This document shows positions 3,240 to 3,551 of a stretch of DNA of 7,938 nt, one piece after another. The stretch lies in the NCBI RefSeq assembly GCF_003334335.1, contig NZ_QOWQ01000070.1; one strand, written 5' to 3'. The position numbers and the translations under genes are program-made. How positions within the stretch are numbered: position 1 is the first letter of the stretch; every line of letters begins with the position of its first letter. Under the pieces are notes generated by a model. The model ran no database searches, was not told the DNA's origin, and saw nothing but the letters and a program-made list of their open reading frames with translations. This DNA comes from Escherichia coli (GTDB lineage Bacteria; Pseudomonadota; Gammaproteobacteria; Enterobacterales; Enterobacteriaceae).

Positions 3240-3243
<4 letters not shown>

Positions 3244-3551
3244 AGATATTTATGATGAGGACGCTCGTGCTTATTGGCAGGATTTTCAATCTTAAAGGAG
3301 TACTGATGCTGCAGATAAGACTCAACTTTTTCTGACAATTTTTCTGCTACTTCCAGGAAGACTTGCCGGACGCTCCTTCTGGCTGCTGCCTCATAAAACT
3401 CCAGCGCAGCTCCTTCAACACGGTCCATGGCGACATCCAGGTCAAAAATTTCACCGTCAAAGCGTTCTTTGTCCTGTAAGGCTACAGTTACCGTAACTTT
3501 ATTCTCAAAATTACGGACTCCTTTCACAACCAGTTCATAGTCTTGAGTCAT
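3240..3551 (-). CDS. ydfR: DUF1327-family protein (YdfR-like), inserted between holin and endolysin
   Basis: A 103-aa ORF whose ATG at 3551 is preceded by GAGGAG. Its stop overlaps the endolysin start (ATGA at plus 3240-3243). It is acidic and hydrophilic with no transmembrane segment. Confidence 0.85.

Follow-up and report, generated by a model that had tools for sequence, protein, structure and literature searches.

The question raised by this locus is why a small soluble protein is encoded between the holin and the endolysin of a phage lysis cassette, and whether it takes part in lysis. The stretch analysed (hereafter, the window) comprises 7,938 nucleotides (nt) of Escherichia coli DNA (contig NZ_QOWQ01000070.1 of assembly GCF_003334335.1) and, along 7861 nt, shared 99.96% identity with Qin, a cryptic prophage of E. 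coli K-12 MG1655. By this comparison the open reading frame (ORF) at 3240-3551 corresponds to ydfR (b1555) of Qin, and the RefSeq name of its 103-amino-acid (aa) product is YdfR; the gene and its arrangement had already been annotated and are not new. An earlier note on this DNA, made from the letters alone, had taken the tight coupling of the ORF to its neighbours as suggestive of a lysis accessory or regulator. Its genomic context suggests that ydfR is probably an optional passenger gene of lambdoid late operons, outside the holin-endolysin-spanin machinery. The reading as a whole, in which the product is an optional late-operon accessory protein acting on a host factor, is held with slightly less than even confidence.

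YdfR matched the Pfam family DUF1327 (PF07041) over the full model (positions 1-93 of 93, E 1.2e-53). The family was found in Enterobacterales only (Escherichia, Shigella, Salmonella, Yersinia, Hafnia, Providencia, Morganella and Rosenbergiella). Besides the position seen in Qin, its members were located as follows (the loci compared carry L numbers; TAC, tail chaperones; TMP, tape measure):

Between tail genes resembling lambda M and L: ES18 gene 24 (termed a "possible moron" in its record), L085, L104, L106-113 and L117.
Upstream of L: L087 and L088.
Between I and J: L090, L094 and L105.
Between the tape measure gene and M: L086.
Between the tail chaperones and the tape measure gene (TAC/TMP): L091-L093.
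After the tape measure gene: L114 and L122.
After Rz: L089 and L123.
After a Phage_holin_2_3 holin: L096-L098.

The family was not confined to lysis cassettes, distant members being found at the M/L, I/J, TMP/M and TAC/TMP junctions, and the common denominator of these contexts is the late operon, not lysis. The earlier note had suggested a survey of DUF1327 beside lysis genes, and had named the lack of a preferential link, together with a deletion without effect on lysis, as evidence against its own proposal. The first half of this was borne out by the distant homologues at tail-gene junctions, whereas the members from Escherichia and Shigella were always found at the holin. ES18 gene 24 resembles ydfR in its DUF1327 beta3-alpha domain (tblastn and alignment), its late-operon transcription, and its small, acidic product of unknown function. 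It differs in lying between the M-like gene 23 and the L-like gene 26, outside the lysis cassette, in having the reverse-strand gene 25 and an annotated bidirectional terminator behind it, and in having neither a C-terminal tail nor a downstream overlap. In the L096-L098 loci, two overlapping ORFs (72 aa and 107 aa; 3001-3517) both matched DUF1327 and were followed by a reverse-strand 86-aa gene and then a lysozyme gene; the two ORFs represent either one long allele split by a frameshift or a tandem duplicate arrangement of the domain.

The presence or absence of ydfR at a gene boundary in collinear genomes is of the moron type, in the sense of Hendrix. The lambdoid morons (lambda bor and lom, HK97 gp15) likewise come and go between collinear late regions and are inserted at gene junctions. 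Unlike these, ydfR is translationally coupled, and no promoter or terminator of its own was detected in the window (no promoter-like or terminator-like site within 3240-3560). Because of this coupling into the operon and the lack of a detectable promoter or terminator, ydfR is expected to be expressed late and not from the prophage.

The gene has 103 codons and lies on the minus strand, as do essQ, rrrQ, rzpQ and rzoQ. The order of transcription is essQ, ydfR, rrrQ and rzpQ, with rzoQ embedded in the last, and the features of the cassette are:

3556..3771, minus strand: essQ, class II holin of the S21 type and the pinholin family; 71 aa and an MKSM dual start (matches to the PHROG families phrog_9876 and phrog_20, both holin; RefSeq essQ/essD).
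3559..3566, minus strand: Shine-Dalgarno (SD) sequence GAGGAGAG of ydfR, within the last holin codons (R-G-E) (read from the sequence).
3330..3551, minus strand: ydfR codons 1-74, conserved DUF1327 domain (Pfam, alignments, AlphaFold2 (AF2) model, and the ratio of nonsynonymous to synonymous substitution rates (dN/dS)).
3243..3329, minus strand: ydfR codons 75-103, allele-specific basic tail (differing C-termini among alleles; low predicted local distance difference test (pLDDT) scores).
3240..3243, minus strand: ATGA overlap of the ydfR stop TGA (3242-3240) with the rrrQ ATG (3243-3241) (read from the sequence).
2710..3243, minus strand: rrrQ, signal-arrest-release (SAR)-type endolysin of the T4-lysozyme family, 177 aa (PHROG endolysin phrog_7, E 9e-61; RefSeq).
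2216..2713, minus strand: rzpQ, Rz-like i-spanin (PHROG spanin families; RefSeq).
2266-2520, minus strand: rzoQ, Rz1-like o-spanin lipoprotein, embedded in rzpQ in the +1 frame (PHROG spanin families; RefSeq; translation).

These coordinates agree with the earlier note in placing an extra 103-aa soluble gene between the holin (S) and endolysin (R) genes, 4 nt after the holin stop and with its own SD; its labels of pinholin and SAR endolysin for the neighbours fit the PHROG families, the MKSM dual start and the SAR-like segment. EssQ shared 80% identity with the S protein of 933W and 83% with that of SfI. RrrQ has an N-terminal SAR-like segment and the residues E35/D44/T50 (read from the sequence); comparison of the translations by eye put its identity to the R protein of 933W at ~90%. 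The holin frame remains open for 25 codons further upstream (3772-3846, minus strand) to a GTG, giving a 96-aa ORF; this extension is probably not translated, and the annotated 71-aa MKSM form is the S21-like one.

At the upstream junction, the holin stop TAA (3556-3558) is separated by the 4-nt spacer TCCA (3552-3555) from the ydfR ATG (3551-3549). In a survey of 84 related loci (4 phage records and 80 from IMG/VR), the DUF1327 start lay exactly 4 nt past an S21-type holin stop in every Escherichia/Shigella locus with upstream sequence, only L081 being without such sequence. The phages 933W, with the order S-R-(ant)-Rz/Rz1, and SfI, with the phage-21-like order S-R-Rz, share the holin family of Qin (80-83% identity), and 933W also the endolysin family. 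Neither carries DUF1327, and in both the SD lies within the holin 3' end: the endolysin of 933W starts 4 nt past the holin stop with the same embedded SD, and R of SfI begins directly (0 nt) after the stop. Since the 933W endolysin itself occupies the +4 position, the start at +4 with an SD inside the holin is a property of the slot, and any gene following S would inherit the coupling. In Escherichia phages, DUF1327 would occupy this SD-coupled slot, which lies 4 nt past the S21-type holin, and the endolysin would fill it where DUF1327 is absent; the slot holds the endolysin in 933W, whereas in Qin it holds ydfR, with the endolysin displaced onto an SD-less leader.

Among phage records with an S21-type holin, DUF1327 was carried by 100 of 441 (77% were without it, including 933W and SfI). 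Because so few of these records have the gene, DUF1327 is dispensable for the S21-type lysis system. Carriage by Shiga toxin (Stx) type was 41/47 for Stx1a phages, 15/17 for Stx2c and 2/124 for Stx2a. These data bear on the possibility that YdfR, made in a fixed ratio with the pinholin and the SAR endolysin, tunes the timing of lysis, possibly through binding to the basic cytoplasmic C-tail of the pinholin or through restraint of the endolysin. The invariance of the 4-nt holin coupling in Escherichia/Shigella phages favours such a role, as do the second lineage behind another holin family (Phage_holin_2_3), the meeting of an acidic N-domain with a basic holin tail, and the translational overlap with R in the Qin allele. 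We nevertheless consider it improbable, in view of the many phages that keep the same holin without DUF1327, the distant homologues in tail clusters, the lack of a membrane segment in YdfR, the lack of a lysis category among its PHROG families, and an allele-specific coupling to R that resembles a deletion/insertion junction scar. Of the earlier proposal, co-expression with the lysis genes stands; the step from coupling to a lysis role is weakly supported, with a generic slot, ATGA in the Qin allele only, a minority of carriers and homologues among tail genes.

The downstream junction differed among alleles. The overlap of the ydfR stop with the endolysin ATG as ATGA, described in the earlier note, is present at 3240-3243. 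Among 90 S/R loci, the R start stood in this position relative to the DUF1327 stop (-4 nt) in 26, all of the 103-aa Qin type; the interval was 42-63 nt in 13 and 319-452 nt in 46, the rest being disrupted alleles or contigs ending before R or within the ORF. By BLAST, the window was ~89% identical to the alleles L034, L035 and L048 across the holin and ydfR codons 1-99; the alignment then skipped 360-773 nt after codon ~99 and resumed 7-17 nt before the R ATG. The segment skipped by the Qin allele holds a reverse-strand phrog_2572-type gene in L034 and L035, and not in L048. The R leader, ...ATAAATATC(T/C)ATG, was common to all alleles and continues to ATGA in that of Qin, where the last 3-4 ydfR codons (H-K-Y-L) are the conserved endolysin leader read in the ydfR frame, followed by the TGA that overlaps the ATG. 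In the other alleles, R follows the same leader without any ORF overlap.

Because the homology of ydfR to its sister alleles stops at codon ~99 and resumes in the R leader, the overlap looks like a scar, which would follow from a deletion/insertion junction and not from a conserved design. The region beyond codon ~74 would be a variable cargo region, with differing C-terminal extensions and usually a reverse-strand gene of ~90 aa; in the Qin allele, which is without this cargo, the ydfR ORF would enter the endolysin leader and end in ATGA. An evolved coupling device was considered for the ATGA overlap and rejected in favour of a junction scar, since the overlap is found in the Qin allele only and coincides with the missing 360-773 nt segment.

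No SD was found in the R leader of any of the 11 alleles compared, and no SD-like purine run precedes the rrrQ ATG. The SD-less leader, ...GATAAATATC(C/T)ATG (window 3244-3265, minus strand; equivalents in L001-L064), was kept across all alleles. As a side effect in cis, the rrrQ start would probably be reached by termination-reinitiation from ydfR, and the translation of R in the Qin allele may depend on that of ydfR. Five of the 31 Qin-type IMG/VR alleles (L022, L027, L031, L032 and L033) were disrupted, by an ACG start, truncations to 62 aa and 25 aa, or a frameshift reading 129 aa into rrrQ; among the partner-bearing alleles of the sample, none was disrupted. This restriction to Qin-type alleles may reflect the decay of cryptic Qin copies only.

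The part of YdfR that is common to the family comprises residues 1-74, which were shared by alleles of 103, 104, 114, 116, 174, 183, 206, 243, 268 and 287 aa, with divergence beyond. The core motifs YEL-V-K, V-VTV, D/E-R-x-E-G and F/Y-Y-E-x-E-A fall within the first ~72 residues (alignments A1-A3), and Y53 and E54 were invariant in 16 diverse DUF1327 members. A structure prediction, one of the checks suggested in the earlier note, gave a beta-beta-beta-alpha domain: the AF2 model has three antiparallel strands (residues 5-14, 18-27 and 34-43) and a long helix from residue 50, with mean pLDDT values of 77-92 in ten-residue blocks over residues 1-70 and values below 50 for residues 84-103. The tail is predicted to be disordered from about residue 84. 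Fold searches returned the family itself and no fold relatives outside it, and a PDB sequence-profile search with alignment A3 gave no match. DUF1327 was the sole match in a Pfam scan of YdfR, which found no muralytic domain, and YdfR had no match in PADLOC or NCBIfam. Five PHROG families (profiles of 105-296 positions) were matched, all through the first 76-99 residues; none is in the lysis category and all are labelled "unknown function". We therefore agree with the earlier note that no function is evident from sequence alone. Its description of the protein as acidic holds for residues 1-74 (isoelectric point (pI) 4.6), as it does for the domain in 12 of 14 diverse homologues; YdfR overall is only mildly acidic (pI 5.56), and its tail (residues 75-103) is basic (pI 9.2). 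The protein has a grand average of hydropathy of -0.61, with no hydrophobic stretch, no signal sequence and no membrane segment (read from the sequence).

The N-domain had a median dN/dS of 0.28 (437 pairs from 34 alleles), compared with 0.09 for the holin, and the tail codons 75-99 gave 0.5-0.96 with very few substitutions. DNA homologous to ydfR was present in 3647 of 5426 complete E. coli genomes, at full length in 1789 and otherwise over the first ~206 nt only. Given the N-domain dN/dS and this distribution, ydfR is a real gene and no chance ORF. An exhaustive profile search of 1.84 billion representatives recovered just 84 proteins, among them stand-alone forms of 71-76 aa equal to the N-domain; stand-alone homologues of 72-86 aa occur in Salmonella and other Enterobacterales, where they are placed among tail genes or behind Rz. 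The functional unit that emerges is the ~72-residue acidic beta-beta-beta-alpha DUF1327 domain.

These values also bear on the idea that the protein function has been lost or is irrelevant in the Qin allele, the ORF being either a cis relay, by which ribosomes at the holin stop are passed on to an endolysin start that has no SD, or a decaying remnant. An ATGA that permits reinitiation next to an SD-less R leader would suit a relay; the cryptic state of Qin, the five disrupted Qin-type loci and the dN/dS of the tail are compatible with a relay or a remnant. Such an explanation is very unlikely, however: the 103-aa allele is intact in the plaque-forming phages PhiR42_1, HannyBb and mEp460_ev081 and in the 1789 complete genomes of E. 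coli, purifying selection acts on the N-domain throughout the family, and in the other alleles the same leader serves for R translation without an overlap.

The regularity that we regard as the most interesting lead concerns the cassette formed by DUF1327 and a reverse-strand gene. At almost every location, a reverse-strand ORF of 70-104 aa was found within ~4-30 nt downstream of the DUF1327 relative. The ES18 gp25-like partner (phrog_10490; alignment A6, 35-88% identity) accompanied DUF1327 at five junctions (M/L, I/J, TAC/TMP, TMP/? and after Rz), which argues that the two genes may move together. The convergent arrangement with a gp25-like gene of ~90 aa is found at 4965-5517 of L100 (ES18), and also in L090, L091, L105, L114, L122 and L123. 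All 46 long-gap E. coli S/R loci (46/90 overall) held a reverse-strand ORF of 86-104 aa belonging to phrog_2411, 2572 or 1853, all of unknown function, or to the ES18 gp25-like family; examples are at ~4345-4689 in L039, ~3052-3374 in L002, ~4525-4885 in L034 and 3817-4131 in L003. The partner family co-varied with the DUF1327 C-terminal type (114 aa with phrog_2411, 183 and 174/243 aa with 2572, 268 aa with 1853), and physical linkage alone could explain this co-variation. In the window, no reverse-strand gene lies between ydfR and rrrQ, which overlap.

Comparison by hhalign did not unite the partner families, at least five of which stayed apart, with the exception of a weak link between L116r and the gp25-like family (E 0.009; blastp 1.6e-4). 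PADLOC returned nothing for four of five partner proteins and a weak, non-significant PDC-S13 match (E 0.014) for the gp25-like one. NCBIfam gave no match for three partner proteins or for the 268-aa allele, and Pfam none for the gp25-like partner family (A6).

The closest known arrangement is that of phi80, in which the reverse-strand defence gene taiEcA is constitutive and the late-operon gene atiEcA is its counter-defence (PMC11364771). As with the DUF1327 relatives, a small late-operon gene lies beside a reverse-strand gene breaking up the Q-dependent late transcript, close to the lysis/packaging region; the phi80 pair is divergent, whereas the DUF1327 pair is convergent, and the partner is absent from the window. 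Homology of AtiEcA to DUF1327 was rejected (hhalign probability 0.4%). By analogy, DUF1327 could be a late-expressed antidote or regulator of the adjacent reverse-strand gene in such a two-gene "noncontiguous operon", of which the Qin allele would be an orphan without its partner. The prophage would express the reverse gene in defence or exclusion, and DUF1327, produced solely from the Q-dependent late transcript, would neutralise it. The near-constant reverse-strand ORF, the gp25-like partner at five junctions, the co-varying families at 46 of 90 S/R loci, the partner gene in the segment absent from Qin (in L034/L035, not L048) and the documented phi80 precedent are consistent with this. We consider it possible but doubtful, as a specific antidote should track one target and here at least five partner families could not be united by profile; linkage by itself is expected to make neighbouring DNA co-vary; there was neither homology to AtiEcA nor a credible PADLOC match; the window itself has no partner; and many apparently functional phages keep DUF1327 without one (the Qin type, the 104/114/116-aa short-gap alleles and L087). 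Among the alternatives, this orphaned half of a cassette was given more weight than a modulator of lysis, and the latter more than a cis relay or remnant.

A bolder extension would make DUF1327 and the convergent ~90-aa gene an unrecognised mobile cassette of Enterobacterales prophages, hopping among the S/R, after-Rz, TAC/TMP, TMP/M, M/L and I/J positions. The reverse gene, expressed from the prophage, would serve in exclusion or defence, and DUF1327, produced from the antiterminated late transcript only, would silence it in the phage's own lytic cycle, perhaps by steering RNase E to the partner mRNA or to a sense-antisense duplex arising from convergent transcription; YdfR of Qin would be the orphaned half. 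We regard this scheme as speculative and rather improbable.

The preferred reading, that of an optional accessory protein acting on a host factor, draws its candidate target from RNase E. Phage-encoded RNase E-binding factors are known from T4 (Srd) and T7 (gp0.7). YdfR is phage-encoded like Srd, gp0.7 and the phiKZ protein Dip. Dip also binds RNase E (PMC4980113), and the host adaptor RapZ binds the catalytic N-terminal half of the enzyme, as reported for YdfR (PMC13232886). No sequence or fold kinship of YdfR to the known RNase E modulators (RapZ, Srd, Dip, RraA/B) was found. Gopel et al. (RNA Biol 2026; PMC13232886) recovered YdfR residues 1-72 in a two-hybrid screen and mapped the interaction with RNase E's N-terminal half to this fragment, which coincides with the evolutionary module defined by the homologues. 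In the same study, full-length YdfR interacted with Rne1-597 in the two-hybrid assay, Strep-YdfR pulled Rne1-598 from lysate with abundant RNA in the eluate, overexpression of YdfR altered few transcripts and caused no growth defect, and almost no ydfR reads were obtained from uninduced K-12, in which the operon is nearly silent. The N-domain would, on these data, bind the catalytic N-terminal half of host RNase E and so modulate how RNA is degraded or processed at a late lytic stage, with no action on the envelope. That YdfR acts through RNase E is put forward tentatively. The absence of any growth or lysis phenotype upon overexpression (PMC13232886) is also a point against a lysis regulator.

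Several observations weigh against our reading. The nuclease-treated in vitro pull-down covered YegJ and not YdfR (PMC13232886), and because the YdfR pull-down lacked this treatment and its eluate was rich in RNA, the association with RNase E could be RNA-bridged. The RNase E evidence stems from overexpression, under which few transcripts shift, and the acidity of the domain in 12 of 14 homologues argues against the domain as the RNA-binding part. All surveyed Escherichia/Shigella alleles with upstream sequence are fused to the holin 3' end, and one lineage follows Phage_holin_2_3, which leaves room for a lysis-linked role in these lineages. Finally, a ydfR::kan mutant of the Keio collection scored in a chlorophenol red-beta-D-galactopyranoside (CPRG) screen for envelope leakiness (PMC3879167 supplements), a result that speaks for a lysis regulator and is also what a lysis inhibitor would give. 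The CPRG list (PMC3879167 supplementary files 2 and 5) holds both ydfR and the nearby Qin gene ydfU, and polarity of kan on downstream lysis genes is not considered there. Since the operon is almost silent in K-12 and rrrQ sits just downstream of the inserted cassette, read-through from the kan promoter into rrrQ is plausible, and the phenotype is probably such a polar effect. With this explanation at least as likely as a role in lysis, the CPRG hit was set aside as evidence for the latter. Literature searches returned PMC13232886 and the CPRG screen only, and no published test of lysis timing or efficiency upon removal of ydfR.

ydfR belongs to those E. coli K-12 genes that still have no assigned function, and many Stx1 and Stx2c phages carry a member of its family in their late region. 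A position in the lysis cassette that is historical rather than functional guards against its annotation as a lysis gene and moves the focus for experiments to the conserved 72-residue domain and the reported RNase E contact. The comparison also exposes the S/R junction as a cargo slot with several uncharacterised reverse-strand genes, which are possible prophage-expressed exclusion or defence factors. The gain is moderate: the hypothesis for one y-gene becomes clearer and a possible gene pair emerges as a lead, but not a new kind of system.

Elsewhere in the window, Rfam cspA thermoregulator matches were found at 4509-4901 and 1614-1999 (both minus strand; 158.8 and 112.8 bits), covering cspB and cspI with their leaders. 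Cold-shock genes flank the lysis cassette in the window and likewise in phage 2H10 (L002), and a terminator-like hairpin is present at 4224-4243 (minus strand). Together these features may account, by way of read-through, for the reported cold induction of the essQ-ydfR-rrrQ cluster. The final 77 nt (window 7862-7938) did not align to MG1655 Qin; the source strain differs there, possibly because a rearrangement or an insertion has its edge at this point. The 56-aa zinc-ribbon ORF ynfU (3991-4161, plus strand), with a CxxC...CxxC pattern, is encoded on the opposite strand in the interval from cspB to essQ, within the expected leader of the late transcript.

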